This document shows positions 507 through 60,849 of a stretch of 64,000 nucleotides of DNA, piece after piece. Made by a program: the position numbers and the translations under genes. The stretch covers positions 96,001 to 160,000 of the forward strand of contig CAWAGQ010000006.1 of assembly GCA_963781585.1 (NCBI GenBank), read 5' to 3'. This stretch comes from an uncultured Gemmatimonadaceae bacterium. Its GTDB lineage: Bacteria > Gemmatimonadota > Gemmatimonadetes > Gemmatimonadales > Gemmatimonadaceae. The notes below the pieces were generated by a model. The model was not told where the DNA came from. It was given only the letters and a program-made list of their open reading frames with translations, and searched no databases. Positions within the stretch are counted from its first letter, which is position 1; each line of letters begins with the position of its first letter.

Positions 507-2510
507 ATGAGTGCTACACTAATCGACCGCCGGCTTGTCGTACCCACGAATACCAAACGCGTGCCCGATCCCGTCGTCTCGTCGTCCGACCCAGAGCTGC
601 GCGCGCACGTTGAGCGCGTCCTGAGCAACAACTACGAGCTCGACCAAGAGATTGGGCGCGGTGGTATGGGCATTGTCTACAAGGCCCGGGACCGCCGCCT
701 GAAACGCGCCGTCGCCATCAAGGTGCTCCCGCCGGAGCTCGCCTTTCGCTCGGAGATCCGGACCCGCTTTCTGCGCGAGGCCGAAACGGCGGCGCAGCTG
801 AGTCACCCGAATATCGTCCCGATCTACAGCGTGGACGAGCACGACGGAATCGTCTACTTCGTGATGGCCTTCGTGGACGGCGAGAACGTCGCGATGCGGC
901 TCAACCGGGAGGGGGCGCTGCCGCCCGACGAGGTGCGCCGGATCATGCTCGAGGTGGGACGCGCGCTCGCCTACGCCCACGAGCGCCACGTGGTTCACCG
1001 CGACATCAAGCCCGACAACATCCTGATCGAACGCGGCGCAGGCCGGGTCATGGTTACGGATTTCGGGATCGCCCGGGCGATCACCGATGGCGCGGACGCG
1101 CGTCTCACCGCCACCGGGATGGCGATCGGCACTCCCGCGTACATGTCCCCCGAGCAGTCGATGGGGGACCGGGAGATCGACGGTCGTAGCGACCTTTATT
1201 CGTTAGGCGTGGTGGGCTATCAGATGCTCACCGGCGATCTGCCGTTCGAGGCGCAGAGTACGCCCGCCCTGCTGGTGATGCACCTTTCGGAACGTCCGGA
1301 GCCGGTAGGAGAACGATGCCCGGACGCTCCCCCCGACCTCGACCGGGCGGTCATGCTCCTGCTCGAGAAGGAACCGGCCAACCGGTTCCCGAACGCCGGT
1401 GCCCTGGTGACCGCGCTGGAGACCGGCGAGGTGCCCGCGCTCCCGGAGGCGACGTCGCTGCCGGTCGCGACGCCGGCACGCCGGCACGAGCCGTATCAAC
1501 CCGCACCGCTCACGACGGGCGGTTATCAGCCCACAGCTGAGGAGCTGGCACGCTGGAACGCCCCTCCGGTCGTGGCGTTCCGGCGAAAGCTGGCGCCGTT
1601 CTTCGCGTTCAGTGTCGTCTCCATCATTCTGTCCATCTTCAACGTGATGGACGCGCTGGTGAGCATCGCCGGCATCTGGAGCATCTTCATCGCGTTCAAG
1701 TACGCTCGCCTCTGGACCGATAACTACGACTGGCGCGACGTCTTCAAGCAGCCGCGTGACCGGATGTTCTTCGACGTGGTCGCCGAGTGGGTGGACAACG
1801 TACGCGCCCTCTGGGACCGGAAAAAGCGCTCCGAGGTCCGCGAGCGTTCGCGATTGCGTGGCCGGAGCAATGTGGGCCTTTTCGCCCCCGATGACCGGAG
1901 AGGCGCGCTGCCGCCCGGCGGCACGATCCCCACGCATGAGCTGACGGCGCTTGCCGGCTCGCACGCCGCATCGGTGCGCCAGGCGGCGCGCTTGCGCGAT
2001 GACATCCAGCGCCAGTTGGGGACCCTCTCGAAGCGCGATCGCGAAGTCATCCATGACGTACCGGCCACCGCCGAGGCGCTCTATCGCCGCGTGGAAGCGC
2101 TCTCGGTGAATCTCGCCGACCTCGAACGCACCGTATCCCCCAACGCCGCCGAGTCCGTGGAGGTCGAGATTTCCGCGCTGGAGGCGCAGGCAAATCCGCT
2201 CGACCTGCGGGCCAGTGAACAGCGCGTGCGGCGCCTTGCCTATCTCAAGCGACAGCGCCGCGCCATCGTCGACCTGGGCACCAAGCGCGATCAGGCGCGC
2301 GACAAGCTGGACAGCTGTCTCCTGGCGCTCCGCAACATCCAGCTCGATATCGTCCGGCTGAAGGCCGGCGGACAGTCGCTGCAGCAGATCACCCAGGTGG
2401 CCGAGCAGGCGATGGCCCTCGCCCGCGACGTGGACAACGCTGTCTACGTCGCCAACGAGATGGGGAAGTTGAAGTCAGGGTCCCGGGGCTCGCGGCCCGG
2501 GGCTCGCTAG
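507..2510 (+). CDS. Hanks-type Ser/Thr protein kinase with a two-TM hairpin and C-terminal coiled-coil domain
   Basis: GRGGMGIVY, AIKVL, HRDIKPDN, DFG and GTPAYMSPE motifs; hydrophobic segment LAPFFAFSVVSIILSIF...IAGIWSIFIAF; helical C-terminus. Start could be GTG 561. Confidence 0.93.
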   Translation: MSATLIDRRLVVPTNTKRVPDPVVSSSDPELRAHVERVLSNNYELDQEIGRGGMGIVYKARDRRLKRAVAIKVLPPELAFRSEIRTRFLREAETAAQLSHPNIVPIYSVDEHDGIVYFVMAFVDGENVAMRLNREGALPPDEVRRIMLEVGRALAYAHERHVVHRDIKPDNILIERGAGRVMVTDFGIARAITDGADARLTATGMAIGTPAYMSPEQSMGDREIDGRSDLYSLGVVGYQMLTGDLPFEAQSTPALLVMHLSERPEPVGERCPDAPPDLDRAVMLLLEKEPANRFPNAGALVTALETGEVPALPEATSLPVATPARRHEPYQPAPLTTGGYQPTAEELARWNAPPVVAFRRKLAPFFAFSVVSIILSIFNVMDALVSIAGIWSIFIAFKYARLWTDNYDWRDVFKQPRDRMFFDVVAEWVDNVRALWDRKKRSEVRERSRLRGRSNVGLFAPDDRRGALPPGGTIPTHELTALAGSHAASVRQAARLRDDIQRQLGTLSKRDREVIHDVPATAEALYRRVEALSVNLADLERTVSPNAAESVEVEISALEAQANPLDLRASEQRVRRLAYLKRQRRAIVDLGTKRDQARDKLDSCLLALRNIQLDIVRLKAGGQSLQQITQVAEQAMALARDVDNAVYVANEMGKLKSGSRGSRPGAR

Positions 2511-2546
2511 GATTCGAGGCGCCAGGTGTCTCCCGGTCCCGTCTCG

Positions 2547-4604
2547 ATGTCCGATCCGCTTCGCGACCGCGTCACGGTCGCGCTCGGTGACAACTACGCG
2601 CTCGAATCGGAAATTGGACGAGGGGGCATGGGAGTCGTCTACCGATGCCGTGACGTCAAGCTGAGGCGGCACGTGGCCGTCAAGGTCCTGCCGCCCGAGC
2701 TGGCGTTTCGCGAGGAGGTGCGCACCCGGTTCCTCCGGGAAGCGGAGACCGCTGCCCAACTGAACCATCCCAACATCGTCCCCATCTATTCGGTCGACGA
2801 GCGCGAAGGTCTCGTCTGGTTCGTCATGGCGCTGGTGGACGGAGAAAGCCTGGCGGCGAGGCTCGTCCGCGAACCGCGGCCGCCCCTTGACGACGTGTGC
2901 CGCATCCTCCGCGACGTCGCCGATGCGCTCGCCTATGCCCACGCGCACGGCATCGTGCACCGTGACATCAAGCCGGACAACATCCTCATCGATCGCGTGA
3001 CCGGACGGCCAATGGTGACGGATTTCGGGATCGCCCGCGCGATGGAAGGCGATTCGCGACTCACCATTACGGGAAGCACCGTCGGCACGCCGGCGTACAT
3101 GTCACCCGAACAGGCCACCGGAGAACGCGATGTCGACGGTCGCAGCGATCTGTATTCGCTCGCGGTCGTAGGATATCAGATGCTCTCGGGCGGCCTGCCG
3201 TTCAAGGCGACCAACACGCCGGCAATGCTGATGAAGCACATCAGCGAACCCGTGCCGCCGCTGCGCGTTCTTCATCGCGACGTCCCGGAATCGCTCGCGA
3301 CCGCAATCGAGCGGGCGCTGGCGAAAAAACCATCCGATCGTTGGCCTGGCGCCGCGGAATTCCGTGACGCGGTGGCCGCGACCCCGATGCACCACTCGCC
3401 TTCGCCACACGCGGCGCGGTCGCCCGTGGCCCCCGTTTCGATGCCGCGGCCAGCCGACAGAGCGTCCGCAGCATGGAAGCGCCCGGCGCAGCATCCCGTC
3501 GAGCCGGGATCTGGCGTCCGCGACGAGCACCACGAATCCGCCGGGAGCCGTCCGCATGGGTCGTCGCGCGACGCCGTCGAGGCCTCGAACATCGGATGGG
3601 AGCATCGAACGCCGTCGTTCGGCGTGCGTGACGTCGCCACGCCGCTACCTCCGGTTCCACCATGGATGCCCGCTTCCTGGCGCGACGCCCGCCGTCAATG
3701 GCGTGAGCAGAGTCGTGCGAGTCGCAGCGAACGTCGGCGCCAGCGCGGTCGCGACGACTCCCTGGCCCAGTTCGGTGAAATGCCTCGCGAACAGCGGATC
3801 CGCCGTTTCCGCGGCCGCGCAGCGAGCACCCTTCTTACCGTGGGGATGCTGGCCGGCATCAACCTGATGTTTTCGCCCGGATTCCCCTGGTTTCTCTTCC
3901 CGGCTGCCTTCATGTCACTCGGGCTGCTGCGCCGCGGCGCGTCGCTGTGGGCCGATGGGATTCGCGTGCGTGACGTGTTCGGCAGAGAGGCGCGTGATCA
4001 GCTGCGGCGAGAGGCCCACGGCGCGCGCGACGCGCGGCACGCTCTGAACGCGTCTCCTCCCGAGGCGGAGGCAGAAAACCTCGCGCCCCGCGACGTGCTG
4101 GCCGGGCCGTACGGCGAGATCGTTCGGCGCGCCGCCGCCGACCAGGCCGCGGCGAGCGCGGCTTTGGCGAAGCTCGCACCCGCAGACCGCGCCCTCATTC
4201 CGGACGTTGCGCCCACAGTGAAGGCCCTCGCCGAGCGGGTTGGCGGGATCGCCGGCACGCTCCACCGCATGCACGAGGACGTCACGCCCGATGCACTCTC
4301 GTCCATCGAGCGCCGCATCGCAGAGGCCAAGGCACAACCAGAGTCTTCGGAGCGGGAGAAGAAACTGACTTTGCTGGAGCGCCAGCGGGCAACGGTGTCC
4401 GATCTCCTGTCGCGCCGCGACGCGTTGAAGACGCAGCTCGACAGCGCATCGCTGATGCTCGAGAACATGCGACTCGATCTGCTCGCCCTGGGGTCGGCGG
4501 GCGTGCAGTCCGCGATCAACGACGTGTCGAGCGCTACCCAGGAAGCCCGGGCGCTCTCGCGAGACATTCAGATCGCGCTGGAAGCAGCCAAAGAGGTCCG
4601 CTAG
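2547..4604 (+). CDS. Hanks-type Ser/Thr protein kinase with a 2TM-like segment and C-terminal coiled coil (paralog of upstream gene)
   Basis: Same kinase motifs; LAGINLMFSPGFPWFLFPAAFMSLGL resembles a 2TM domain. ORF opens at 2526; ATG 2547 chosen. Confidence 0.93.
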   Translation: MSDPLRDRVTVALGDNYALESEIGRGGMGVVYRCRDVKLRRHVAVKVLPPELAFREEVRTRFLREAETAAQLNHPNIVPIYSVDEREGLVWFVMALVDGESLAARLVREPRPPLDDVCRILRDVADALAYAHAHGIVHRDIKPDNILIDRVTGRPMVTDFGIARAMEGDSRLTITGSTVGTPAYMSPEQATGERDVDGRSDLYSLAVVGYQMLSGGLPFKATNTPAMLMKHISEPVPPLRVLHRDVPESLATAIERALAKKPSDRWPGAAEFRDAVAATPMHHSPSPHAARSPVAPVSMPRPADRASAAWKRPAQHPVEPGSGVRDEHHESAGSRPHGSSRDAVEASNIGWEHRTPSFGVRDVATPLPPVPPWMPASWRDARRQWREQSRASRSERRRQRGRDDSLAQFGEMPREQRIRRFRGRAASTLLTVGMLAGINLMFSPGFPWFLFPAAFMSLGLLRRGASLWADGIRVRDVFGREARDQLRREAHGARDARHALNASPPEAEAENLAPRDVLAGPYGEIVRRAAADQAAASAALAKLAPADRALIPDVAPTVKALAERVGGIAGTLHRMHEDVTPDALSSIERRIAEAKAQPESSEREKKLTLLERQRATVSDLLSRRDALKTQLDSASLMLENMRLDLLALGSAGVQSAINDVSSATQEARALSRDIQIALEAAKEVR

Positions 4605-4608
4605 TTCC

Positions 4609-5220
4609 CTAACGCGGCACCAGCGCTGGCAGCCACTTCTCCCCGCCGAGCGCGAATCCCACCAGTCCGCCGACAACGGCGCCAATGGCGGCACCGGCCG
4701 GAAAGGCGCTGGCAATGTCGCCAAAATCCGGATTGCGTTGTGGAAGATTCCCGAGCCCCCACAACAGCCCGCCGATCAACGACCCGAAGAGCACGCCCCG
4801 AACCGTAGACCGCTGCGCTGAGCGTCCACCGCTCACCTCGATCTCGCGAATTGCGGAGAGGCGAATGCTGACGTGACGATACTGGTCAACGAGCACCGGC
4901 CCCATGTCGAGGCCGAGGCGGGTTCGCTGGCCTGCGGTGTCGAGCACCATTTCCGTCGCGTCGAGCGAATCGACGAGTCCCACGTACCGATCGTCCCGGA
5001 GGTCCGGCGCGAAGACGCGGACGCGCGATCCGACAAACACATCGTGCGGGGCCGATTGCTGCGCCCCGGCGACCACGACCGTGGCCCCCGATCCCAATAC
5101 GGCGATGGCAACCCTCAGAAATCGCCGGACCGTCTTCAATGCGGCCTCCCGTCGGTCGGATCGTTGACGCACGTCCTCGCCTTCATCCGCGTGCGCGCGC
5201 TGCAGGTGCGTGGGCCCCAT
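4609..5220 (-). CDS. Hypothetical exported/membrane protein with C-terminal glycine-zipper-like helices
   Basis: Signal-like VAIAVLGSGATVVVAGAQ; GxxxG repeats (GAAIGAVVGGLVGFALG). True start probably downstream of the ORF start. Confidence 0.65.
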   Translation of the reverse strand: MGPTHLQRAHADEGEDVRQRSDRREAALKTVRRFLRVAIAVLGSGATVVVAGAQQSAPHDVFVGSRVRVFAPDLRDDRYVGLVDSLDATEMVLDTAGQRTRLGLDMGPVLVDQYRHVSIRLSAIREIEVSGGRSAQRSTVRGVLFGSLIGGLLWGLGNLPQRNPDFGDIASAFPAGAAIGAVVGGLVGFALGGEKWLPALVPR

Positions 5221-5224
5221 TTCC

Positions 5225-6046
5225 TCAACGCTCCATAAGGTCGTTCACCACGCTCGCCACACGCTCGGGCGCCTCCTCCGGCGAAAAGTGTCGAACGTTT
5301 TCCACGATGTCGAGCGTGGCATGCGGCATTGCCGCGAGGAGCCGCCGCGCGACGGACGGCGGGCAGAACTTGTCGTCTGATCCCCAGATAATCGAGACCG
5401 GACGCGTGATACGATCGAGATCGGCCGCAATGCCCGTCATCTCGTCCTCGCTGAAGGCCATCAGATGGCGGAGAAAGCACCGCCTCCCCTGGGATGTCGA
5501 GAACGGCCGGAGGAACTGGTCGAGAGAGCGCCGGCCTCGCTCCGCGTCACAGTAGCGGTGGAGCATGTCTGCCTGCACTGCGCGGAGCAGAGCGCGCGTT
5601 GGCATCAGGCGTGTGAACGGGAGGAATGCGCGCATCAGCGCGAGCGTGCCCGTGACGGTCAGGTCGAATCCAATGGAATCTATCAGGCAGAGCCGTGTCA
5701 CCCTTTGGGGCCACCCAAGCGCCATTGCCTGCGCAATGCCGCCACCCATGTGATGGCCCACCAAAGTCGCCGCCTGAATGCCGAGGACATCCATGAAGGC
5801 GACAAGGCGCCGGGAATGGGCGGCAAGCGATAGGGCGGCAGTGCCGGGGAGGTCGCTTCTGCCGAACCCGAGGAGATCGACCACCACTACGCGATGCCCG
5901 GGCGGCATGAGCGGAACGAGCTCACCCCAGAGGTGGCCGGACGTTGGAAAGCCGTGAAGGAGAATCACCGGCTCGCCTGCGCCCCTCGTACCAGACGCGT
6001 AGTAGTAGAGGCGCAGCCCGCCGACATCTATGAACTCGCCACGCAT
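5225..6046 (-). CDS. Alpha/beta fold hydrolase
   Basis: LLHGFP, DLLGFGRS, GHHMGG (His at the usual nucleophile Ser position), WGSDD, HFSPEE. Start at MRGEFID. Confidence 0.88.
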   Translation of the reverse strand: MRGEFIDVGGLRLYYYASGTRGAGEPVILLHGFPTSGHLWGELVPLMPPGHRVVVVDLLGFGRSDLPGTAALSLAAHSRRLVAFMDVLGIQAATLVGHHMGGGIAQAMALGWPQRVTRLCLIDSIGFDLTVTGTLALMRAFLPFTRLMPTRALLRAVQADMLHRYCDAERGRRSLDQFLRPFSTSQGRRCFLRHLMAFSEDEMTGIAADLDRITRPVSIIWGSDDKFCPPSVARRLLAAMPHATLDIVENVRHFSPEEAPERVASVVNDLMER

Positions 6047-6190
6047 GACACGGAGGAATCGGCGCGGGCAGCGCGTCAGAATGCAGCAAAGCCGGTCTCC
6101 GCGACCGTGCGGTTCCGGCAGAGCCAAGATGCGCGCAGTTCGTTGTAGCAACAAGACTTGCGTCTCTGCCACTGGCGCTTTGATTGAAAC

Positions 6191-7414
6191 GTGCTATCCT
6201 TACGCGCCCTTCATTCAGGCGACCCCGGCAGGGTGCATATAGCGTTGTCAAATAACGGCTTATACGCTCCAAGCCCCGTGACCATTCCCACCGCGCCGGA
6301 ATCCCCCGCGCTTCAGCCGACTTCACCCCCCCCTCCCGAAGCAGTCCAGTTTCCACTCAGCTGGATGCTGCAGCACGGGTCGGGGTCGCTACAGTTCCGT
6401 ACGCTGCAGGACGTCGCCCGGTTCGAAAACGCACGGGATCGGTTCTTCACGATGGCATTGTCGTTTCCGCCGGCGCTCATGCTCGCCATTGAGCAGGGGC
6501 CTGATGGAGTGTGGAACGACGCGATGCTTGCCGTACCCTCAACCAGAGCCGTGGCTTTCGAGGGTGTGGGGACGATCCCGGCGTACCGCCGTCTCCTCGA
6601 GTACGGCTGGGATCGTGAGGCTCCGCCGCTGTTGCATGCGCGTCGCGTACTCTTTCGCCTCCTGGCCGAAGACAACGATCCGGCGTTCCTGTTCGAGTTG
6701 GGCGGGAAGGGGAAGATGGACGCCGACCTGATCCATCGGGGCAGAGTGATGCTGCGCGAAGCGGCAGCCGCAGCGCTGGCGCACGCGGGCTACGAAGGAG
6801 ATCCGCGACTTCGCGGAGCCGCCCGCCGAATGCTCAATCGTTCGGACGAGTACCTGCGGTCGCCACTCGCCCAGAAGCCGTGGGTGCGTGTGGGCAACAA
6901 GCAGGTGCTGTCCCCCGAGGCGGCGCCGCCGTCGATCTATCTCCTCTCGATGATCGCCTACATGCCGCTGTTTCGCAGCGAAAACCACTCGACCATCGAG
7001 CACCTTTACGCACATCTGTCTCAGCCCCTCCCCAGACAGGAGTCGCAGCAACTTGTCGGGAAGCACATCGTGGCACAGCCACATCTGGTACTGGGCGACC
7101 TGCTGCCGAATCGGAACGCGGCGGACGCCGACGTTCCGTTTGCCCTCACGTGGTTGGAACTGATGGCGCGGCTCCAATATCTGCGCCGCAACCTGGGATG
7201 GTTGAGCTTGTATGAGCGATTCCTCGATGATCGCGACCGGGATTTCGTCTGGCATCCGCACCGCGGCATGGCGATGCCACGGAGTTTCAATCCGGCGGTG
7301 TGGCCGTACTTCCCGCTGGAGCCTCAGGCCAGCGGTGACGATCGGTGGACCGACGTGACCTTTCGACTCGGCCTGATTGCGCGCATGCTGGGCCGACCGA
7401 TCGAGCTCGTCTGA
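6191..7414 (+). CDS. Hypothetical protein (predicted all-helical)
   Basis: 407-aa ORF with host-like codon usage filling the gap; no motif recognised. Start may be GTG near 6278. Confidence 0.7.
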   Translation: MLSLRALHSGDPGRVHIALSNNGLYAPSPVTIPTAPESPALQPTSPPPPEAVQFPLSWMLQHGSGSLQFRTLQDVARFENARDRFFTMALSFPPALMLAIEQGPDGVWNDAMLAVPSTRAVAFEGVGTIPAYRRLLEYGWDREAPPLLHARRVLFRLLAEDNDPAFLFELGGKGKMDADLIHRGRVMLREAAAAALAHAGYEGDPRLRGAARRMLNRSDEYLRSPLAQKPWVRVGNKQVLSPEAAPPSIYLLSMIAYMPLFRSENHSTIEHLYAHLSQPLPRQESQQLVGKHIVAQPHLVLGDLLPNRNAADADVPFALTWLELMARLQYLRRNLGWLSLYERFLDDRDRDFVWHPHRGMAMPRSFNPAVWPYFPLEPQASGDDRWTDVTFRLGLIARMLGRPIELV

Positions 7415-7680
7415 GCAGCGCCAGCCGCAATCGTCCACGACCATGACGCAGCGGCCTGATTCGCCTGCCGATCGATGCGTGGTCCGCTTGTAGCGCCTGA
7501 CCCATCGCTCCGAGAATTCCCGACAAACCCACCCGCGCCGGCTGATGGCAGTCGCGGCGAGCGGGGTGTAAGAATGAACGAGGAGGAGACTGCGGGATCA
7601 TGCTCGCCCGCAACTTGCTGACCTGCGACTCGAGGCGAGTCGTGATGCGGCCATCGAAAGGCGGTCGGGAGGTCGAGACG

Positions 7681-8820
7681 ATGATGACGTACGAGGAACT
7701 CGTTCAGCTTCGGCGGCGCACCGATGGAAGGCGCGTGCTGAGTGTCTACCTTCCGGGCCCGGCACATGACCCCGCCCAGCGCGACGAGGCCATGACGCTG
7801 CTGGGAGGTGGGGTGTCGCGCATCAGACAGGCGTTGTCCGACGCACCGCACAACGAACGGGAAGCGTTTCTGGCAGCGACCGAGCACGCGGTCCGCGCTT
7901 TGCAATCGGAAACGCGTCCCAGCGGCCGCGAAGGCATCGTGATCTTCTCCCAGGCCGACGGATTGCGGCACGTCGGGTGGTTGTTCGCGACCGCGCCCGC
8001 GGTTGTGGAGTGGCGTGATGGCATTGTCGTCGCGCCGTATCTTCGTTCTCTGGCGGAAACACGGCCGTCGATCGTTGTCGTCGTGGATTCACGCGCCGCG
8101 CGCGTACTCCGTTTCGAGCAAGGTGCACTGGCGCCGCTCGACACCTTCGCGGTGGAGGTGCGCAGTGCGGAGCCGATGCACATGGGAGAAGCGCCTCGGC
8201 CGGGGTTTCATCACGGTGTGCACGGAGCAACGGGCACTGACGAGGCCATGCGTCGAGAAGCGGCGGCATTCGACCGCATGCTCTCTGAGCTGGCCCATCG
8301 CGTCACGAATCTGACGAGCCAGGACGTTTGGCTGGTGGTGGGCGGCATGCCAGAGAGCGTGCAGCACCTGGTGGCCGCGATGCCCAGGGGGATGAACAGC
8401 AGGTTACAGGTGGTGGGTGGTCTGACGACCACATCCAGTGATGCCGGCATTGCCCGCGCAGCGGCTGGCGCGATCGAGGAACTCGCGCGGCGCCGGGACG
8501 GCGTGCTGGTTGAGCTCGTTCTCGATCGGGCGAGGGCCGGTGGACGTTCGGCCAGCGGATGGCGTGAGACCCGAATTGCCCTCGAGGAACGGGCGGCGAG
8601 CGAGGTCCTGCTCTCGCGACGGCTGCTGGAGCGCTCGCTGGACCGGGCCGAGACCCTGGCGCGGAGAGCCATGGATGGGGGTGCGCGCGTTGACATCGTC
8701 TCCGGCGAGGGTGCGCTGCGCCTCGAGCGCGAGTCCGGCGGCGTCGCTGCCGAGTTGCGCTTTCCGGTGCCGTTCGATGTCCTGGTCACTCGATCGGTGA
8801 GCGCTGTGGTGGAAGGCTGA
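7681..8820 (+). CDS. Bacterial eRF1/aeRF1-like (baeRF family) protein
   Basis: N-terminal VLSVYL, central VVVVDSRAARV, C-terminal L7Ae-like domain ending GGVAAELRF, as in baeRF families. Confidence 0.72.
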   Translation: MMTYEELVQLRRRTDGRRVLSVYLPGPAHDPAQRDEAMTLLGGGVSRIRQALSDAPHNEREAFLAATEHAVRALQSETRPSGREGIVIFSQADGLRHVGWLFATAPAVVEWRDGIVVAPYLRSLAETRPSIVVVVDSRAARVLRFEQGALAPLDTFAVEVRSAEPMHMGEAPRPGFHHGVHGATGTDEAMRREAAAFDRMLSELAHRVTNLTSQDVWLVVGGMPESVQHLVAAMPRGMNSRLQVVGGLTTTSSDAGIARAAAGAIEELARRRDGVLVELVLDRARAGGRSASGWRETRIALEERAASEVLLSRRLLERSLDRAETLARRAMDGGARVDIVSGEGALRLERESGGVAAELRFPVPFDVLVTRSVSAVVEG

Positions 8821-8951
8821 ACGCGCGTAGGTCTTTCCCGTTCGCCGAATCCGCAATCGCACGGACAGCGCAGTCGGACGAATCGATGCACAATGAGCGA
8901 GCATGGGAGAAGGCATTCGACACAATGCAGGGAAACAGCAGGGAGGGACAC

Positions 8952-9431: not shown

Positions 9432-9490
9432 GTGCGCACCTCTCCGAGGAGAGACGGATGAGGGTCTGAGATCCGCATCCATGCGCACGC

Positions 9491-9530: not shown

Positions 9531-9535
9531 GCCGG

Positions 9536-11862: not shown

Positions 11863-11864
11863 GG

Positions 11865-51820: not shown

Positions 51821-51870
51821 GCGCTCTGGCCTCTGGCCTCTGGAGGCTGGACTGCGGCCTCTGGACTGAC
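51821..51870. repeat. Intergenic heptamer array (GGCCTCT-type)
   Basis: gcgctct ggcctct ggcctct ggaggct ggactgc ggcctct ggactga. Confidence 0.7.
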
Positions 51871-51980: not shown

Positions 51981-53048
51981 ATGCCGGTGGCCCTGTCGAA
52001 GCTGCAGCAGAACATCGTCTTCGGCGTCCTGGTCTACTACGCGGCCCTGTTGGCCCTGGCGTTCGCGCTCTGGCGTTTTCTGCCCGGGCCGTTGCATGAT
52101 CGCCTGGCGGCGGCAGTAAGACCGCTTACCGGCCAGATCGGCGACAGCGGGGGCCTGCTCACGTCGGGACCACCGGGCGCGAAGGTACCGCCCCAGGCCG
52201 CGTTGCTCATGACGATCATCGCGGGCCTCTCGGGCCTCCTGCTCGCCCTGCCGATGTCCTGGGTGTACATGTTCACGCGGCAGAAGAAGGGATACTCACA
52301 GTCGGTGGTCCACAGCCTGGTGATGCTGCCCGTGGTGGTGGCCATCATCGCGGCCCTGGTGCGGAGCAGCGTGGCGCTGGCGTTCAGCCTGGCCGGCGTG
52401 GTGGCCGCGGTCAGGTTCCGCACCAACCTCGAAGACAGCAAGGATGCGGTGTTCGTCTTCGCGGTCATGGCGTTAGGCCTGGCGTGCGGCGTGGAGCTCG
52501 AGGTTGCCGCCGTCCTGTCCATGCTCTGGGTCGCGATCACGCTGGGCCTCTGGTACACCGATTACGCGCGTACGCCGCCGTCGCTGGAAGGGGCGCGCGC
52601 CGAGCAGCACATGCAGCGCGCGCTGGCCATCGCCAACCGCACCAGCCAGTTCGTGGCCCGCCTTGACCGCGAGATCCTGGAGGCGATGGCGCCGGCCCAG
52701 CTCGATGCGCTCCAGTCGCGCGTGGAGAAGCGGAAATCGGAACTCGAGGACAAGAAGAAGAAAAAGAAGGACGGCGCCGAGACCGGTGACGAGGAAGGGC
52801 CGCGGTTCGACGGCCGCCTCACGATTACCGTCAGCGATCCCGATGCGGCGCAGCCAGCCATCGAAGCGCTGTTCGAAACGCAGCTCAAGCGCTGGAAGGT
52901 GATCCGGCTCGAGCGCGAGGACGGCGTGGCCAGAATCGTGTATGCCGTGCGACCGAAGAAGGGCGGAACGCTCGAAACTGTTGCGGCGACCGTTGAGCGC
53001 GATGGCGCTCCCTACGTGTCGGGTACGGAGGTGGAACGATGGATCTGA
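51981..53048 (+). CDS. DUF4956-like membrane protein
   Basis: SVALAFSLAGVVAAVRFRTNLEDSKDAVFVF..MALGLACG is characteristic of DUF4956. Confidence 0.8.
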   Translation: MPVALSKLQQNIVFGVLVYYAALLALAFALWRFLPGPLHDRLAAAVRPLTGQIGDSGGLLTSGPPGAKVPPQAALLMTIIAGLSGLLLALPMSWVYMFTRQKKGYSQSVVHSLVMLPVVVAIIAALVRSSVALAFSLAGVVAAVRFRTNLEDSKDAVFVFAVMALGLACGVELEVAAVLSMLWVAITLGLWYTDYARTPPSLEGARAEQHMQRALAIANRTSQFVARLDREILEAMAPAQLDALQSRVEKRKSELEDKKKKKKDGAETGDEEGPRFDGRLTITVSDPDAAQPAIEALFETQLKRWKVIRLEREDGVARIVYAVRPKKGGTLETVAATVERDGAPYVSGTEVERWI

Positions 53049-54275: not shown

Positions 54276-55541
54276 TCAGGGCGGCGAGGCCGCAAGCACC
54301 GGCGCACGCGCCCGGCCACTCAAGGCAACCGCCGCCGCCAGGTCGCCCGTGACGTTCGCGGCGGTGCGGAACATGTCCGGAATGGTGTCCACGCCGAGGA
54401 GGATGCCGAGTCCATCGAGCGGGAGCCCGGCACTCATCAGTACAGGGGCCATGATCACGATCGACCCGCCAGGGATGCCGGGTACGCTGAAGCTGGTGAG
54501 GACACCCGTGACAACGACGCTCGCGAGCTGGGCGGGCGAGAGGTCCACGCCATAGATCCGCGCGATGAAGATCACGCCGGCGGTCTGGCCCAACCCGGCC
54601 CCCACGCGATACATCGATGCGGCCAGAGGAAGAAAGAAGCTCGACATCTGCTCGGGGAGGTGAAGCCGCGTTCGGGCGCACTCGATCATCGCCGGCAGCG
54701 TCGCCAGCGACGAACGCGAACTGAAGGCGACGGCCTGGGCGGGGAAAATGGCGCGCGCGAACTGGCCAACCGGGATTCCACCTGACGACGAGGCCAGAGG
54801 ATAGAGAACCACCAGCGCGAACACGGTGGTGACCACCGCGATCACAACGATGTAGCCCGCGAGCGCGCCGGCGGCCGACAACCCCAGCCTGGCGCCAAGC
54901 GCCAGCGACAGGGCGAAGACGCCGATCGGTGCCAACGCGAGGATCCAGCGGACCAGAAGCAGGGCCACGTCGCGGATGGCCTCGAACACACGCACTACTG
55001 CCTGACGAGCCTCGCCCTGTTGCGTGGCCAGCGCGAGACCAAACGCCAGCGAAAACACGATCAGCGGCAGCATCGCGGCGTCGGTTGCGGCGCGAACCGG
55101 ATTGGTGGGCACCAGACTTACGAGCCACTGCACAAGCGTGGGAATCCGGTTGACTGCCTCCGGCGCTCCCGCGCTCGACCCCGAGCGCAGCGCAGCCGTC
55201 GTCGCCGCGTCGATGTGGAACGCGTTCAGGAGCGACGGGGCGACCAGTGCCGTGGCAATCGCCGCCACGAAGCAGGTCGCGAGAATGAACAGCAGCGCGC
55301 GCGAGCCGAGGCGGCCCAGAGTGCGGGGGCTCGGCACAGACGCCACGCCGGCGATCAGGCTGCCCACCACCAGCGGAATCACCGTCATCCGGATGGCGTT
55401 GATCCAGAGCGTTCCCAGAGGCGCGACGTACCCCACCGCGGCCTGGAGGCCGGGCGAACCGGACACCGAGATGGCCACCCCGGCGGCAAGCCCGACGCTG
55501 AGGGCGATGAGCACTCTGGTCGTCAGCGACATGTGCCCCAA
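54276..55541 (-). CDS. Dicarboxylate/amino acid:cation symporter (DAACS/GltP family)
   Basis: AFSSRSSLATLP, DMFRTAANVTGD; multiple TM helices. Confidence 0.92.
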   Translation of the reverse strand: MGHMSLTTRVLIALSVGLAAGVAISVSGSPGLQAAVGYVAPLGTLWINAIRMTVIPLVVGSLIAGVASVPSPRTLGRLGSRALLFILATCFVAAIATALVAPSLLNAFHIDAATTAALRSGSSAGAPEAVNRIPTLVQWLVSLVPTNPVRAATDAAMLPLIVFSLAFGLALATQQGEARQAVVRVFEAIRDVALLLVRWILALAPIGVFALSLALGARLGLSAAGALAGYIVVIAVVTTVFALVVLYPLASSSGGIPVGQFARAIFPAQAVAFSSRSSLATLPAMIECARTRLHLPEQMSSFFLPLAASMYRVGAGLGQTAGVIFIARIYGVDLSPAQLASVVVTGVLTSFSVPGIPGGSIVIMAPVLMSAGLPLDGLGILLGVDTIPDMFRTAANVTGDLAAAVALSGRARAPVLAASPP

Positions 55542-55786: not shown

Positions 55787-56149
55787 ATGGCCAACAAGAG
55801 CTATGACGATCTGGTCCGCGAATCGAAGACCCGGATCCGCGAGTTCACGCCGCGTCAGACCCAGGAATTGTTGCAGCGCGAACCGGACACAGTGCTGATC
55901 GACTGTCGCGAGCCGAACGAGTTCGCCTTGGGTCATATCCCCGGCGCAGTGTTCATTCCGCGCGGCGTTCTGGAGCAGACCATCGAGCGGGCCGCGTCGC
56001 GCGAGCGCCGGATCGTGCTCTACTGCGCCAGCGGAAACCGCTCGGCGCTTGCCGCCGACGTGCTCCAGCAAATGGGCTACCAGGATGTGGCATCGATGTC
56101 GGAAGGAATCCGGGGCTGGGTGGACCAGGGAGGGGAGGTGGCGGAGTGA
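55787..56149 (+). CDS. Rhodanese-like sulfurtransferase domain protein
   Basis: IDCRE..E...GHIPGA, YCASGNRS. Confidence 0.9.
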   Translation: MANKSYDDLVRESKTRIREFTPRQTQELLQREPDTVLIDCREPNEFALGHIPGAVFIPRGVLEQTIERAASRERRIVLYCASGNRSALAADVLQQMGYQDVASMSEGIRGWVDQGGEVAE

Positions 56150-56222
56150 GGCCATAGGCCATAGGTCAGTGGGCCAAAGGTCATAAGGCCACAGGTCAAA
56201 GGCCAAAGGTCATGGGCCAGGG
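56150..56222. repeat. Intergenic heptamer array (GGYCANN)
   Basis: ggccata ggccata ggtcagt ... aggccac aggtcaa aggccaa aggtcat gggccag. Confidence 0.8.
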
Positions 56223-56282: not shown

Positions 56283-56885
56283 GTGCCAGAGTCCCTACTC
56301 CACTCCCATCCGCTTCTGGAGCGGCTCGCCGCGAGTCTTGCGGCAAGGCCCGGAGAGCCGGCGCCTGACGACGGCGCGCCGCGTCGGGCGGCCGTCGCGG
56401 TCGTCTTCCGGGTGCCCGCATCCGGCGCCCTCGAGCTGTTGCTCATCCGGCGCGCCGAGTATGAAGGCGATCCGTGGAGCGGACAGGTGGCGCTTCCCGG
56501 TGGCCGGTGGCACGCGTCGGACACGTCGCTCCAGGACACCGCAGTGCGGGAAACCTTCGAGGAGACCGCCGTCGATATCGCCCACCAGGGGGTCATCCTC
56601 GGTCCGCTCGACGAACTGCGCCCGCGAACACCCGTTCTCCCCCCGATCATCGTCACGCCATTCGCCACTGTCGTGCGGCCCGAGGTCCGGATCGTGCCGA
56701 GTGAGGAAGTAGCCGAAGCGTTCTGGGTGCCCTGGTCGCTGCTGGAAGATCCCGCCACCAGCCGGGAAAGCGCCGTTCGGATACGGGGCGCCGAACGACT
56801 GGTGGAGAGTTACCTCGTCGGCCCGCACGTGGTGTGGGGCATGACCGAGCGGATACTGCGCCAGCTGGCCGGCCGATTGCGATAG
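56283..56885 (+). CDS. Nudix hydrolase, CoA pyrophosphatase (NudL-like)
   Basis: RAAVAV, LLIRRA, WSGQVALPGG, TAVRETFEETA, VWGMT. Confidence 0.88.
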   Translation: MPESLLHSHPLLERLAASLAARPGEPAPDDGAPRRAAVAVVFRVPASGALELLLIRRAEYEGDPWSGQVALPGGRWHASDTSLQDTAVRETFEETAVDIAHQGVILGPLDELRPRTPVLPPIIVTPFATVVRPEVRIVPSEEVAEAFWVPWSLLEDPATSRESAVRIRGAERLVESYLVGPHVVWGMTERILRQLAGRLR

Positions 56886-57092: not shown

Positions 57093-58487
57093 ATGACCGG
57101 ACAACCTTCTCGCGGGACCGATCCCGGTCCGGCCTCCTCCGCTGTCACCGCGCCAGTGGCCGCTCCCCGCGGCTGGCGCCGCGCCCGCCTCACGCCGAGC
57201 CTCGCCGACGTCTACCGCACCATCCCGGTCAGTGGGCTGGTCTGGTGGCGCAAGCTCCTGGCCTTCGCCGGCCCGGGCTATCTGGTCGCCGTCGGCTACA
57301 TGGATCCCGGAAACTGGGCCACCGACCTGGCCGGAGGCTCCCGCTTCGGCTACACGCTGCTCAGCGTCATCCTGCTCTCCAACCTGATCGCGGTCCTGCT
57401 GCAGGGACTGGCCTCGAAGCTCGGCATCGTTACCGGCCGTGACCTGGCGCAGGCGTGCCGCGACCACTACTCCCGGCCGGTCAATCTCGCGCAGTGGGTT
57501 CTGTGCGAGATCGCGATCGCTGCTTGCGACCTCGCCGAAGTCATCGGTTCCGCCATCGCCCTCAACCTGCTGTTCGGCCTGCCCGTCACCTGGGGCATCA
57601 TGGTGACGGCGCTGGACGTCATGCTCGTGCTCCTCCTGCAGCACCGGGGCTTCCGGCTGCTCGAGGCCGTGGTGGTCGCGCTCATCGCGACCATCGGAAT
57701 CTGCTTCGGCTTCGAGCTCTTCATCTCGCGACCGGACATCGGGGTCATGGCTCGGGGGTTTCTCCCCTCGGTGCAGACGGTGGCGGATCCGGCGCAACTC
57801 TACATCGCGATCGGCATCCTCGGCGCGACGGTCATGCCCCACAACCTGTATCTGCATTCCTCGATCGTGCAGACGCGCCGCTACGAGGAGCACGCCGCCG
57901 GCAAGCGCGAAGCCGTGCGATACGCGTTCATCGACTCCACTATCGCGCTCACCCTCGCGCTGTTCATCAATGGGGCGATCCTGGTGGTTGCGGCCGCGAC
58001 GTTCTTCCGGACCGGGCACCACGAAGTGGCGGAGATCCAGGACGCCTATAAACTTCTGACGCCGCTCCTCGGCGTGGGTGGGGCCAGCACGGTCTTCGCG
58101 CTCGCGCTGCTGGCGAGTGGACAGAATTCCACGTTGACGGGCACGCTCGCCGGACAGATCGTCATGGAGGGGTTCCTGAATATCCGGCTGCGCCCGTGGC
58201 TGCGGCGGCTCATTACCCGCGCCATCGCCATCGTCCCGGCTGCCATCGTCTCCGCCGTCGCCGGTGCGCATGGGACGGCGCAGCTGCTGGTGCTCAGCCA
58301 GGTCATCCTGTCGCTACAGCTCTCGTTCGCCGTCGTGCCCCTGGTGCAATTCACAAGCGAGAAGGCCAAGATGGGGGAGTTCGTGAATCCGGGATGGGTC
58401 AAAGCGCTGGCCTGGACGGCGACCGTCTTCATTGGGGTCCTGAACGCCTGGCTGCTCGTGCAGGCGGTGCGAGGGTGGCTGACCTGA
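57093..58487 (+). CDS. mntH: Nramp family Mn2+ transporter
   Basis: [44 protein letters not shown]. Confidence 0.95.
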
Positions 58488-58933: not shown

Positions 58934-59610
58934 CCGCAGTGCGGAAACGCGCGCTCACCGCTCCGGTGGAGGACTATCTCAAGGTCATCTACGACGTGGA
59001 GCTCGCGGGCGCGGCGGCGGCAACGAACGACATTGCTCAGCGCCTCGAGATCGCGCCGGCCTCGGTGAGCGGCATGGTGCGCCGTCTGGCGGAGCAGGGA
59101 CTGCTGGCATATGAACCGTATCGTGGTGCGCGCCTCACGCCGGCCGGGCGCCGCGCCGCCCTGCGCACGATCCGCCGTCACCGCGTGATCGAAGCCTATC
59201 TGGTGCGCGCGCTGGGTTTTCCCTGGGACGGCGTGCACGAGGAGGCCGAGCGGCTGGAGCACGCGGCCAGCGACGCGCTGATCGATCGCATGGCGCACGC
59301 CATCGGCGAGCCGCTCACCGATCCGCACGGTGCGCCGATCCCGACGCGTGAGGGGCGGGTGGACGAGACGCGGTACGGCACTCTGGCCGACGTGGCCGTA
59401 GGGGGGCGCGCGCGTCTCATCCGGGTCGGCGACGAGGACGCGGCATTGCTGCGGCACCTCTCCTCGTTAGGCCTCCGGCCCGAGGCCACGGTGTCGGTTC
59501 GCGGCCGTGCGCCGTACGACGGGCCGATCACACTCGACGTGGGCGGGCGGCGGCGTCAGGTCGGGGCGGCGCTGGCCGCGCGGCTCCAGGTGGAGCTGCT
59601 GTCGGACTGA
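58930..59610 (+). CDS. mntR: DtxR/MntR family metal-dependent regulator with FeoA domain
   Basis: EDYLKVIY, SVSGMVRRL, RRHRVIE.YL, HEEAERLEH, DPHGAPIP. Confidence 0.92.
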   Translation: MTAVRKRALTAPVEDYLKVIYDVELAGAAAATNDIAQRLEIAPASVSGMVRRLAEQGLLAYEPYRGARLTPAGRRAALRTIRRHRVIEAYLVRALGFPWDGVHEEAERLEHAASDALIDRMAHAIGEPLTDPHGAPIPTREGRVDETRYGTLADVAVGGRARLIRVGDEDAALLRHLSSLGLRPEATVSVRGRAPYDGPITLDVGGRRRQVGAALAARLQVELLSD

Positions 59611-59641: not shown

Positions 59642-59668
59642 CTGAACCCTGAACCCTGAACCCTGAAC
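59642..59668. repeat. CTGAACC tandem heptamer (about 4 units) between convergent genes
   Basis: ctgaacc ctgaacc ctgaacc ctgaac. Confidence 0.75.
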
Positions 59669-59691
59669 GCCGTTAGCGGAAATGCGGATTC

Positions 59692-59886
59692 CTAACGAGC
59701 CTTGGAGGCCGGTCGCCCCGCCTCCCCGCCCGCCTTCTTCATCAGCCGCCCGGCGCGGGCCAGTGCGTCCCGCAGCACGAATTCGATCTGTCCATTGAGA
59801 CTGCGCAGGTCATCGTTGGCCCAGCGCTGCATCGCCTGCAGCACCTCCGCATCCACGCGCAGCAGAAACGGGCGCCGGTCAGCCAT
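59692..59886 (-). CDS. Arc-like ribbon-helix-helix DNA-binding protein
   Basis: RRPFLLRVD...WANDDLRSLNGQIEFVL, the small RHH typically found downstream of SPFH genes. Confidence 0.85.
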   Translation of the reverse strand: MADRRPFLLRVDAEVLQAMQRWANDDLRSLNGQIEFVLRDALARAGRLMKKAGGEAGRPASKAR

Positions 59887-59978
59887 GACATCGACCGGCG
59901 CCGCCGTGCCCCCTCACGCCGCTCCAGCTCATCCGCCAACTCCCACCGCGGCGCGCCACGACGCCTCCGGGCTCCGAC

Positions 59979-60849
59979 TCACTGGTAGATCGTCCCGGCG
60001 TTGACGATCGGCTGCGCGTCACGGTCGGAGCAGAGCACTACCAGCAGGTTGCTGATCATCGCCGCCTTGCGCTCCTCATCGAGCTGCACGAGCGAGCGAT
60101 CAGAGATCATCGACAGCGCATTCTCGACCATGCCCACGGCCCCTTCGACGATCTTCTGCCGGGCTGCGATGATCGCGCTCGCCTGCTGGCGACGCAGCAT
60201 CGCCGACGCGATTTCCGGTGCGTAGGCGAGATGGCTGATGCGTGCCTCGATGACTTCCACCCCCGCCTTGTCGAGCCGATCCTGGATCGCCTTCTTGAGC
60301 GACGACGCGATCTCGTCGGGGTGCGTACTGAGCGCCTTCTCCCCCTCCACGTGGGCATCATATGGATACGACTGCGCCAGCGCCCGCACCGCCGACTCGC
60401 TCTGGGTCTGGACGATAGTTCTGGTAGTCGTCCACCTCGAACATCGCCTCTGCCGAGTCGATCACCTTCCACACCACGATGGCCCCGATCTCGATCGGGT
60501 TGGAGTGGATGTCGTTCACCTTGAGCTTCCCGGTCTCGAAATTCCGCACCCGGAGCGAGATCCGCTTCTTGGCGTAGAACGGGTTGGCCCACCAGAGGCC
60601 GGCGTCGCGCACCGTGCCGACATACCGGCCGAAGAGCGTCAGCACCTTGGCCTCGTTAGGCTGGACGGTGAACAGCCCGCCGGCGCCGAGGGCCACCAGG
60701 CCGAACACGAGAGCCCAGGTGACCGCGAGCCCGGGACGCTCGGCGCCCGCGGCCGCGATCAGCCGCCAGATCGCCACTGCGCCCGGACAGAGAAGAGCAC
60801 AAGGGCGGCAAGCCCGTTGGTCGGCCTTCAATCGGATTTCGCGGAACAT
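59979..60849 (-). pseudogene. SPFH/band 7 membrane protein split by a +1 frameshift near 60414 (or a sequencing error)
   Basis: The first frame gives VQPNEAKVL..FG.Y.GT...KVND...NPIEI...DDYQNY. After one extra C (AAC TAT C GTC CAG) the next frame gives [19 protein letters not shown]...[19 protein letters not shown]. Confidence 0.8.

Follow-up and report, generated by a model that had tools for sequence, protein, structure and literature searches.

A 64 kb stretch of the genome of an uncultured Gemmatimonadaceae bacterium (contig CAWAGQ010000006.1, positions 96,001 to 160,000; hereafter the window) is marked by a degenerate octamer, CGTBAGGC (B = T, C or G), of which it holds 54 copies, i.e., about one per 1.2 kb. 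Counts against several null models in the window, and comparison with orthologous loci of relatives, show that this octamer is a lineage-specific, double-stranded DNA word, present about once per kilobase, in either orientation and mostly within genes.

An over-represented octamer with a degenerate fourth position

A preliminary description of this DNA had drawn attention to a single octamer, CGTTAGGC/GCCTAACG, i.e., the form of the word with T at position 4 (T form), and had counted 20 copies by eye. Exact counting gave 20 copies and reproduced every coordinate as well as the split of 12 copies on the plus strand and eight on the minus strand. In dinucleotide-preserving shuffles of the window (n = 100) the T form had a mean of 0.92 and a maximum of 3 copies, and 0 of 100 shuffles reached 20; the Poisson tail for at least 20 copies at 0.92 expected is 3e-20. 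Markov models of order 0, 1, 2 and 3 predicted 2.39, 0.90, 0.49 and 0.87 copies in the window, respectively, and the T form was its top-ranked over-represented 8-mer in the Markov analysis, 23-fold above the order-3 model. For a codon-aware null, 47 genes covering 91% of the window were called from third-position GC (GC3) and Pfam matches, and synonymous codons were shuffled within each called gene (n = 300) while stop codons and intergenic DNA were held fixed. Relative to this null, with a mean of 4.37 and a maximum of 9, the observed count of 20 was reached in 0 of 300 shuffles. Thus, as far as the window goes, the excess of the octamer persists when codon usage is taken into account.

The enrichment of the T form therefore stood, but the preliminary description had missed the degeneracy of the word, its density and its lineage dialects. 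By the base at position 4, the window contains 20 copies of the T form, 22 of the C form (CGTCAGGC), 12 of the G form (CGTGAGGC) and none of the A form (CGTAAGGC), for which the order-3 Markov expectations among the CGTNAGGC forms are 0.9, 5.5, 5.3 and 0.4, respectively. The codon-aware null gave means of 6.2 for the C form and 5.3 for the G form, and neither observed value was reached in 300 shuffles. Taken together, the 54 copies fall on the plus strand 26 times and on the minus strand 28 times. Two copies matching at seven of eight positions had also been listed earlier; both exist, each starting one base before the position then given (now 4607 and 59690).

With our own gene calls, the T form reads as nCG-TTA-GGC (x-Leu-Gly) ten times and as CCT-AAC (Pro-Asn) three times, lies at five stop sites and is intergenic twice. 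The ten x-Leu-Gly readings proposed earlier were confirmed, as were the five stop sites, which end six genes; the copy at 20443 was borne out as a double stop, providing TAG for one gene and TAA for a gene on the opposite strand. The three Pro-Asn readings were also found, one of them (24222) being uncertain, as it lies near the 5′ end of a long open reading frame (ORF), in a part that is only weakly coding. A single Arg-Leu-Thr reading of the T form was not reproduced, and where one intergenic copy had been reported our calls place two (17524 and 40758). Ten of the 52 [SPTA]-Leu-Gly tripeptides in the genes of the window are written with the word. TTA makes up 18 of the 1957 Leu codons in called genes and 10 of these 18 are inside the word, so that TTA is not equally common elsewhere; the statement that most TTAG/CTAA tetramers lie in the word was likewise correct (20 of 33). 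Among the stop codons of the 47 gene calls (24 TGA, 18 TAG and four TAA), the octamer provides three TAG and three of the four TAA, i.e., six of 46. As a separate observation, TAG stops are unusually common for a genome of 68% GC.

Over all its forms, the word is used in the window in five coding phases, and a sixth phase, with the G form only, was seen in pooled carriers, i.e., relatives that carry the word (see below). The base at position 4 tracks the reading frame: phase 1 permits only TTA (Leu) or TCA (Ser), the options in phase 0 are CAG or GAG, and where position 4 falls on a silent third base, as it does in two phases, the word is written with the common codons GTC, CTC and CTG. The codons that go against the bias in order to write the word are TTA, TCA, AGG and CCT. 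Copies in genes of the window are sense in 26 cases and antisense in 19, in several frames, and a function at the level of RNA or peptide was rejected on these counts. The claim of a signal on DNA rather than on protein is upheld by the five phases, by the use on both strands, at stops and between genes, and by non-carrier orthologues that encode the same peptides without the word.

Around the T-form copies, 20 bases to each side were compared, and no flanking consensus was found beyond a weak 3′ G (12 of 20). The word is a bare octamer and not the core of a longer repeat. A dispersed repeat of the repetitive extragenic palindromic (REP) or miniature inverted-repeat transposable element (MITE) type was rejected, because there are no extended shared flanks and because copies are part of the reading frame of conserved proteins, which show no insertions there. 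Density is low at 1-17700, with five copies in 15.2 kb of genes compared to 40 in 43 kb elsewhere, and several genes in this part have lower GC3. The possibility that the first 17.7 kb are a recent island was tried and rejected: compatible [SPTA]-L-G sites are filled there in 1 of 9 cases and elsewhere in 9 of 44, which is no significant difference, and octamer density is not correlated with GC3 (Spearman 0.13, p 0.37).

Carriers, non-carriers and dialects among relatives

The word was followed into relatives through dnaE2, the gene of an error-prone polymerase. In the window dnaE2 stands together with an imuA-like and an imuB-like gene in a mutagenesis cassette (31079-37788, minus strand), and its best matches, of up to 78% identity, are proteins named Gemmatimonadaceae. 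An alignment of 14 dnaE2 proteins was used for a profile search of genome contigs, which gave 80 related loci (1,156,519 bp), all but one titled as metagenome-derived Gemmatimonadaceae, Gemmatimonadales or Gemmatimonadota genomes. In 30 of these 80 loci the cassette shows synteny with a radical SAM gene. Where T-form carriers are defined as loci with at least two T forms per 10 kb, 26 of the 80 loci are carriers and the T form is almost absent from the rest. The 26 carrier loci (366,092 bp) contain 197 T forms where 8.2 are expected, 107 C forms (28.5 expected), 36 G forms (34.4) and three A forms (2.0), whereas the corresponding counts in 52 remaining loci (743,056 bp) are four (1.4 expected), 38 (36.7), 41 (57.7) and two (6.1). 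Per base, the T form is 83 times as frequent in carriers as in non-carriers.

Lineages differ in the bases they use at position 4, and the loci were put into T-only, T+C and C+G groups after these counts had been seen. T-only carriers include the loci numbered L015, L017 and L018, with T/C/G counts of 15/0/0, 12/0/1 and 8/0/0, respectively. The window and its closest relatives use the T and C forms. Two loci of about 24 kb have no T form and instead hold dispersed copies of the other two, L044 with 20 C and 30 G forms and L022 with nine C and 13 G forms. Additional words, i.e., CGTTTGGC in L042 (eight copies) and CGTTAGGT in L061 and L015 (seven copies each), suggest further dialects at positions 5 and 8. 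Whatever the dialect, the total density of the word in carriers is about 0.5-2 per kb. Dialects of unrelated sequence in the non-carriers were considered and rejected, as the top 8-mers there stem from short arrays in which units of 7-9 bases are repeated in tandem. Nor was a substitute word found in non-carrier loci of at least 12 kb with arrays collapsed: no dispersed 8-mer exceeded 11 copies or about 18-fold, and most of the top dispersed 8-mers were below 10-fold.

One-off variants of the word in carriers are common at the outer positions (TGTTAGGC with 19 copies and CGTTAGGT with 26) and at position 6 (CGTTATGC, 27 copies), and rare at positions 2 and 7. Judged from these sequence counts, leakiness at positions 1, 8 and 6 combined with a strict inner core is what would be expected for a site that is read by a protein.

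The presence of the word is scattered among relatives on two gene trees, both quick reconstructions from one neighbourhood and not a species tree (dnaE2, 81 rows; radical SAM gene, 31 rows). In the dnaE2 tree (FastTree) the window groups with carriers only, the clade comprising 22 rows with a local support of 99; a second carrier group, L042, L017, L061 and L025, is sister to a word-free clade of six rows, and L034, L044 and L022 stand alone. The radical SAM tree agrees, with a carrier clade of 14 rows (95) and a further clade (97) in which L042 and L017/L061 are grouped with L064 and four word-free rows. When 31 rows of the dnaE2 tree were scored as carriers and 37 as non-carriers, leaving 13 short or intermediate rows unscored, at least six changes of state were required among the 68 scored rows.

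To resolve single sites, a codon-mapped alignment was built from 81 dnaE2 genes, some of them partial, whose extraction was guided by tblastn; it comprises 12 T-only, 15 T+C, two C+G and 52 non-carrier rows. The word occurs at 50 distinct positions of this alignment, and shared columns hold it in, e.g., 18, 12, 9 and 7 rows. At the column of the window copy at 32531 (Thr-Leu-Gly), the T form is present in 18 carrier rows, and three more carriers have the peptide without the word. Non-carriers keep the peptide at this column (TLGV in 28 and TLGI in nine rows, among the commonest) and never have the word. Over the whole gene, [SPTA]-L-G is written as nCG-TTA-GGC in 18 of 25 cases in T-only rows, in 31 of 38 in T+C rows, in 0 of 6 in C+G rows and in 0 of 111 in non-carriers. 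V-R-x is written as GTB-AGG-C in 0/17, 14/53, 3/7 and 5/130 cases, and P-N-x as CCT-AAC-G in 9/30, 9/39, 0/4 and 0/130, respectively. Retention at synonymous positions in relatives is therefore found, with 49 of 63 [SPTA]-L-G sites carrying the word in the T-form groups together compared to none in the non-carriers. As a control, A-L-R was examined, which written as GCC-TTA-CG would give the A form; carriers as a whole use this spelling in 1 of 64 cases (T-form groups alone, 1 of 60) and non-carriers in 0 of 115. Because this 1 of 64 contrasts with the 49 of 63 for [SPTA]-L-G in the T-form groups, the A form is truly absent, and coding constraints do not account for its absence.

The word is also written where the protein has to change. 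L018 has SPNG in place of the CPRG found in 43 non-carrier and 16 carrier rows, and L009 and L029 have IVRQ in place of ICRQ (37 and 16 rows); both replacements create the word. A third replacement that creates the word is seen in five rows, among them the window, with TSGI or TLGI at a column that in non-carriers mostly reads TLAI or TLAV. These results show that the pressure acts on DNA and is strong enough to fill most tolerated sites and to alter proteins.

Possible readers and functions of the word

Given that the word is used in defiance of codon bias, at stop sites and in place of other residues, and that relatives write it in dialects or lack it, a sequence-reading factor of evolving specificity must favour it. 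An origin as a mere side effect, be it of a repeated element, of the amino-acid composition or of codon usage, is refuted: half of the T-form copies encode the common dipeptide Leu-Gly, but the codon-preserving null yields 4.4 copies instead of 20, the same peptides in the 52 non-carrier rows never carry the word (0 of 111), and copies have unrelated flanks, lie on both strands and include stop codons.

By analogy with known systems we lean, tentatively, towards a self-DNA tag of the DNA uptake sequence (DUS) or uptake signal sequence (USS) type, kept by biased uptake and recombination. This reading is suggested by the density of the word, its lack of polarity, its asymmetry, its dialects, its effect on proteins and the about 80-fold discrimination between carriers and non-carriers. 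The DUS of Neisseriaceae (read by the minor pilin ComP) and the USS of Pasteurellaceae are likewise short and non-palindromic, occur about once per kilobase in both orientations, have many copies inside genes in tolerated frames, where they shape codon and amino-acid choice, and form lineage dialects that differ by single bases; for DUS, dialects and the logic of self-recognition are described in an earlier study (PMC3630211). They differ from the word in phylum and in their unrelated sequences, in length (10-12 bases for DUS and nine plus flanks for USS, compared to eight with one degenerate here), in their terminator-linked inverted pairs and in being family-wide, whereas the word is scattered among close relatives.

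In such a system, a surface DNA receptor of the type IV pilus uptake machine would prefer fragments with the word. These fragments would recombine into the chromosome more often, so that new copies would spread and lost ones would be restored by molecular drive, and the spread would go on until most sites that the proteins can accommodate were filled. With its tetramer, which is very rare in this high-GC DNA, the T form might allow own DNA to be distinguished about 80-fold from the DNA of neighbouring Gemmatimonadaceae. Dialects would result from changes in the receptor, and word-free lineages from its loss. More tentatively still, CGTBAGGC and its dialects could represent a third, independently evolved family of uptake sequences and the first outside Proteobacteria, read at the surface by a type IV pilus component (possibly a FimT-like pilin or its partner) and repeatedly gained, retuned and lost in soil lineages.

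To our knowledge, the tagging of own DNA for uptake has been described in no more than two bacterial families, and we know of one other hyper-abundant octamer, the highly iterated palindrome HIP1, whose function has been open for decades. The word is a clear-cut third case besides the DUS/USS tags and HIP1, in a soil phylum rich in uncultured members. Carriers, non-carriers and dialects stand side by side on the tree as a natural comparative experiment, and a gene whose distribution follows both the presence and the dialect of the word should reveal the reader, which would settle the choice between uptake, methylation with repair, and chromosome organisation. As the word overrides codon bias and replaces conserved residues, it matters for codon-usage models, gene calling and the detection of horizontal DNA. 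If it is an uptake tag, an abundant but poorly cultured soil phylum would be shaped to a major extent by natural transformation with barriers at the species level, and the word could mark resident versus imported DNA in these genomes.

Several observations weigh against an uptake tag. The information content of the word is about 14.4 bits and it is shorter than DUS or USS; it lacks a flanking consensus, and the 53 gaps between its 54 copies in the window (mean 1171 bases, coefficient of variation 0.89) are not clearly more regular than a random spread would give. Only three of the 54 copies are intergenic, which is not above the 9% non-coding share of the window. Among 29 sources, adjacent copies at most 100 bp apart are direct in 16 cases and inverted in only eight, and there are no terminator-like inverted pairs to speak of. 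According to a recent preprint (10.1101/2025.10.24.684340), transcription terminators contain about half of the DUS/USS copies, frequently in inverted pairs, so that the lack of terminator pairs here tells against a DUS/USS-type tag. The scattered distribution fits a mobile or fast-evolving methyltransferase equally well. The sample is limited, i.e., 64 kb of this genome and 2.5-24 kb from each relative. In literature searches that did not cover subscription journals we found no report of natural competence in the phylum and no description of the octamer, or of any uptake-type or hyper-abundant word, in Gemmatimonadota, and the listed literature matches to the exact octamer were only primers or works unrelated by title.

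The only candidate for uptake machinery seen in the window is a lone gene for a GspH/FimT-family minor pilin (14705-15124). Its product scores 30 bits against Pfam GspH (cut-off 21), and its N-terminus matches type IV pilins in the PDB. There are 320 homologues, and most of those among the matches listed are exactly 139 residues long; the C-terminal stretch VSRLGRxRR is conserved in 22 aligned homologues, its G and first R being invariant and the rest at least 90% conserved. According to a study of FimT, a C-terminal GRxR motif mediates DNA binding in natural transformation and fimT is often a lone gene, but binding in Legionella is without sequence preference (PMC8897410). The tail of the pilin matches this GRxR motif at the sequence level, and the protein may thus be a sign that the lineage takes up DNA, which is no evidence for specificity: since FimT binds without sequence preference, the pilin would explain the capacity for uptake and not its specificity, a further point against the tag. 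A single distant match to it was found in the 80 loci, in the non-carrier L014. A different sequence-specific reader in Neisseria is the single-strand nuclease Ssn, which reads the genome-wide NTS/dRS3 repeats and modulates transformation (PMC11893778). These repeats are hairpins of about 30 bases with 2% of copies inside genes, whereas the word has eight bases, no hairpin and a mostly genic location.

Alternatively, the word could be a chromosomal one of the HIP1 kind, e.g., the site of an abundant nucleoid or chromosome-organising protein, with no DNA uptake involved; we consider this possible but doubtful. HIP1 (GCGATCGC, cyanobacteria) is also an octamer found in and between genes, with variant words in some lineages; its analysis gives an over-representation of 15- to 300-fold, positions that are shared between genomes and, as a hallmark, periodicity on a scale of 10-90 kb (PMC5861425). 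The word compares well in size and excess (23-fold over the order-3 Markov model in the window, 83-fold relative to non-carriers). Its copies, too, lie at the same alignment columns in many genomes, and they are placed within and between genes in proportion to space, with no association with terminators; its density near 0.5-2 per kb whatever the dialect is as a functional set-point would predict. However, HIP1 is a palindrome that contains methyltransferase sites, whereas CGTBAGGC is not its own reverse complement. HIP1 also occurs in most cyanobacteria, whereas many close relatives of the carriers are, with tandem arrays collapsed, without any dispersed hyper-abundant 8-mer, which ill fits an essential organising role. 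Shared positions, in turn, also arise when few compatible peptides are saturated, as seen in the 49 of 63 filled [SPTA]-L-G sites.

A by-product of methylation and repair is an unlikely origin of the word. Here, an asymmetric-site methyltransferase, either the one at 48469-51699, which had been named as a candidate reader in the preliminary description, or another, would mark the word, and a linked mismatch or short-patch repair would convert near-matches, so that copies accumulate without function. The window does encode a large N6-adenine methyltransferase that resembles type IIG enzymes and has an SNF2 partner, and enzymes of types IIG and IIL read short asymmetric sites, often with one degenerate position; single-position switches of specificity and a scattered distribution are typical of them. 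Elhai is said to have proposed, in 2015, a methylation-dependent repair model for HIP1. Among one-off variants, bottom-strand transitions at positions 2, 6 and 7 are rare (3, 1 and 1 copies) compared to C-to-T at positions 1 and 8 (19 and 26); correction confined to one strand could lead to this pattern, but weaker recognition of the outer positions explains it equally. Targets of restriction-modification are normally avoided or neutral, and the 20- to 80-fold enrichment is unlike them; as for the targets of type IIG/IIL, type III and BREX (bacteriophage exclusion) methyltransferases, which share with the word the short asymmetric site, the degenerate position, the single-position changes and the scattered occurrence, we know of no case of enrichment. 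The accessible parts of the Gemmatimonadota methylome literature give no motif for the phylum.

The enzyme itself has a best match to a type IIG restriction-methylase profile over residues 154-1025, with about 150 N-terminal residues unmatched. The nuclease part of that profile finds no match in the protein. Its 120 homologues among the matches listed are full-length, 52-90% identical and 975-1127 residues long (typically about 1060), and those among them that carry names are from Gemmatimonadaceae. The methyltransferase and SNF2 genes have the word at ordinary density, six copies in 5.6 kb. Because of this density and the uniform length and 52-90% identity of its homologues, the methyltransferase looks like an old resident, and such a look alone leaves the limitation of the word to some lineages unexplained. 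There is no Vsr-like or other repair gene beside it in the window, and an adenine methyltransferase offers no deamination-repair route of the HIP1 kind. Neither the methyltransferase nor the SNF2 gene was found in any of the 80 loci, which are centred on dnaE2, and the proposed link between this enzyme and the word gained no support from the analysis.

A Chi-like hotspot or another polar signal, such as FtsK-orienting polar sequences (KOPS) or architecture-imparting sequences (AIMS), read by a helicase-nuclease or a translocase, is very improbable. Like the word, Chi (e.g., GCTGGTGG) and KOPS (GGGNAGGG) are asymmetric octamers on resident DNA, and KOPS is also free at its fourth position; Chi is over-represented in resident genes and varies between taxa. 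Chi and KOPS are, however, co-oriented with replication, and known sites are far less dense and less enriched than a word at about one per kilobase; the word-free relatives, moreover, have no substitute word. The earlier rejection of a polar role holds: cumulative GC skew climbs almost monotonically across the window, while copies are split 26 to 28 between the strands, and in the 29 sources, counted where GC skew is clear, the G-rich strand has 167 copies and the C-rich one 228, GC skew being only a proxy for the direction of replication. In the loci, 133 T-form copies are on the dnaE2 strand and 64 on the opposite one, an excess in line with the frequent use of nCG-TTA-GGC in sense phase, the reading of 109 of the 154 T-form copies that have an assigned frame. 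Copies are somewhat denser around imuA-imuB-dnaE2, as a Chi-like site would allow, with 1.25 per kb in dnaE2, 1.02 upstream and 0.80 downstream in carrier loci. A special enrichment in genome-maintenance genes was rejected on the same figures, the difference from the flanks being small and the loci having been chosen around dnaE2.

Sites and neighbouring features of the window

All copies of the word, the two near-matches and the candidate reader genes are collected in Table 1.

Table 1. Copies of CGTBAGGC by form, copies with seven of eight matches, and candidate reader genes in the window.
Feature	Position	Strand	Context
T form	1201-1208	+	Ser/Thr kinase gene 507-2510(+), TCG-TTA-GGC (S-L-G)
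T form	17524-17531	-	intergenic by own calls; inside unassigned 145-aa ORF 17231-17668(+)
T form	20443-20450	+	TAG stop of helicase gene 17758-20448(+), TAA stop of GNAT gene 20445-20960(-)
T form	21055-21062	+	TAA stop of ABATE/zf-CGNR gene 21057-22328(-)
T form	24222-24229	-	uncertain: Pro-Asn in weakly coding 5′ part of ORF 23959-25983(+), or stop of small ORF 24224-24436(-)
T form	25118-25125	+	XdhC-family gene, TCG-TTA-GGC (S-L-G)
T form	25655-25662	+	XdhC-family gene, CCG-TTA-GGC (P-L-G)
T form	28020-28027	+	TAG stop of NifU/MocA-like gene 27024-28025(+)
T form	31405-31412	+	antisense in dnaE2 (31079-34912, -), CCT-AAC (A-P-N-G); word at column in seven rows
T form	32531-32538	-	dnaE2, ACG-TTA-GGC (T-L-G-I); word at column in 18 carrier rows
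T form	36036-36043	-	imuB-like gene, GCG-TTA-GGC (A-L-G)
T form	36378-36385	-	imuB-like gene, GCG-TTA-GGC (A-L-G)
T form	37880-37887	-	TAG stop of radical SAM gene 37882-39102(-)
T form	39699-39706	+	amidase gene, GCG-TTA-GGC (A-L-G)
T form	40758-40765	-	intergenic, between amidase and pterin dehydratase genes
T form	43873-43880	+	TAA stop of anti-sigma-like gene 43875-44657(-)
T form	47930-47937	-	SNF2 helicase gene, ACG-TTA-GGC (T-L-G)
T form	52471-52478	+	DUF4956 gene, GCG-TTA-GGC (A-L-G)
T form	59465-59472	+	DtxR-family gene, TCG-TTA-GGC (S-L-G)
T form	60654-60661	+	antisense in Band-7 gene piece 60358-60849(-), CCT-AAC (P-N)
C form	9574-9581	-	antisense in hydrolase gene (P-D)
C form	11371-11378	+	antisense in M16 peptidase gene (R-L-T)
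C form	14689-14696	-	intergenic, 9 bases past stop of FimT-like pilin gene
C form	25994-26001	+	gene 25980-27020 (V-R)
C form	29536-29543	-	Big_1/DUF1573 gene (A-S-G)
C form	29712-29719	+	antisense in Big_1/DUF1573 gene (P-D)
C form	31527-31534	-	dnaE2 (R-Q-A)
C form	34136-34143	-	dnaE2 (T-S-G-I); non-carriers mostly T-L-A-I/V at column
C form	34372-34379	-	dnaE2 (L-V-R-H); word at column in seven rows
C form	37605-37612	-	imuA-like gene (V-R)
C form	38274-38281	-	radical SAM gene (V-R)
C form	39777-39784	+	amidase gene (S-S-G)
C form	40679-40686	-	overlaps end (stop) of amidase gene 39251-40684(+)
C form	42249-42256	-	DUF4097 gene (S-S-G)
C form	42524-42531	+	antisense in DUF4097 gene (P-D)
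C form	45713-45720	+	antisense in HAD gene (R-L-T)
C form	46461-46468	-	SNF2 gene (R-Q-A)
C form	47456-47463	-	SNF2 gene (S-S-G)
C form	47649-47656	-	SNF2 gene (R-Q-A)
C form	49287-49294	+	antisense in methyltransferase gene (P-D)
C form	55000-55007	-	dicarboxylate symporter gene (R-Q-A)
C form	56363-56370	-	antisense in NUDIX gene (P-D)
G form	6614-6621	+	gene 6191-7414 (R-E-A)
G form	12312-12319	+	antisense in M16 peptidase gene (R-L-T)
G form	37330-37337	+	antisense in imuA-like gene (R-L-T)
G form	39269-39276	+	amidase gene (R-E-A)
G form	43466-43473	+	antisense in DUF4097 gene (R-L-T)
G form	45867-45874	+	antisense in HAD gene (A-S-R)
G form	45961-45968	+	antisense in HAD gene (P-H)
G form	51575-51582	-	methyltransferase gene (R-E-A)
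G form	52816-52823	-	antisense in DUF4956 gene (R-L-T)
G form	57187-57194	-	antisense in Nramp gene (R-L-T)
G form	59132-59139	-	antisense in DtxR gene (R-L-T)
G form	63275-63282	-	antisense in acyl-CoA dehydrogenase gene (S-L-T)
7/8 copy CGTTAGGG	4607-4614	-	one base before the start given earlier
7/8 copy CGTTAGGA	59690-59697	-	one base before the start given earlier
Type IIG-like N6-adenine methyltransferase	48469-51699	-	Eco57I, N6_Mtase and MmeI_Mtase domains; candidate reader of the preliminary description
SNF2-family helicase	46082-48472	-	adjoins methyltransferase; weak DpdE/DrmD-like matches far below curated cut-offs
GspH/FimT-family minor pilin, 139 aa	14705-15124	-	lone gene, candidate only; type IV pilin N-terminus, VSRLGRVRR tail (GRxR)

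The window also contains tandem arrays with a unit of seven bases, (AGGCCAN)n or its complement, at 31961-32049, 33186-33240, 37800-37863, 51824-51865, 56149-56219 and 61057-61084. Two of them lie inside a variable insert of dnaE2 and the others are intergenic; AGGCCANAGG has 19 matches in the window where 0.21 are expected. A separate (CTGAACC)n array is at 59642-59668. Among the relatives, L033, L068, L038, L046, L031, L022, L075, L076 and L008 each have their own tandem unit of 7-9 bases; units of relatives include ACTCCCG, CCGAGTC, CCCATTC, AAACGAG and GAGAGGAC, and the arrays often occur as nearby pairs in plus and minus orientation. The tandem units are a lineage-specific phenomenon apart from the dispersed octamer.

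Two genes of the window deserve a brief description. The Band-7/SPFH gene at 59979-60849 (minus strand) appears to be split into overlapping ORFs, 59979-60389 and 60358-60849, that match different Pfam halves, and the split may reflect a frameshift or a sequencing error. In the protein encoded at 7600-8820 (plus strand), a baeRF family-10 domain was recognised, whereas its match to the ribosome hibernation factor family of MSMEG_1130 is weak and falls far short of the cut-off.

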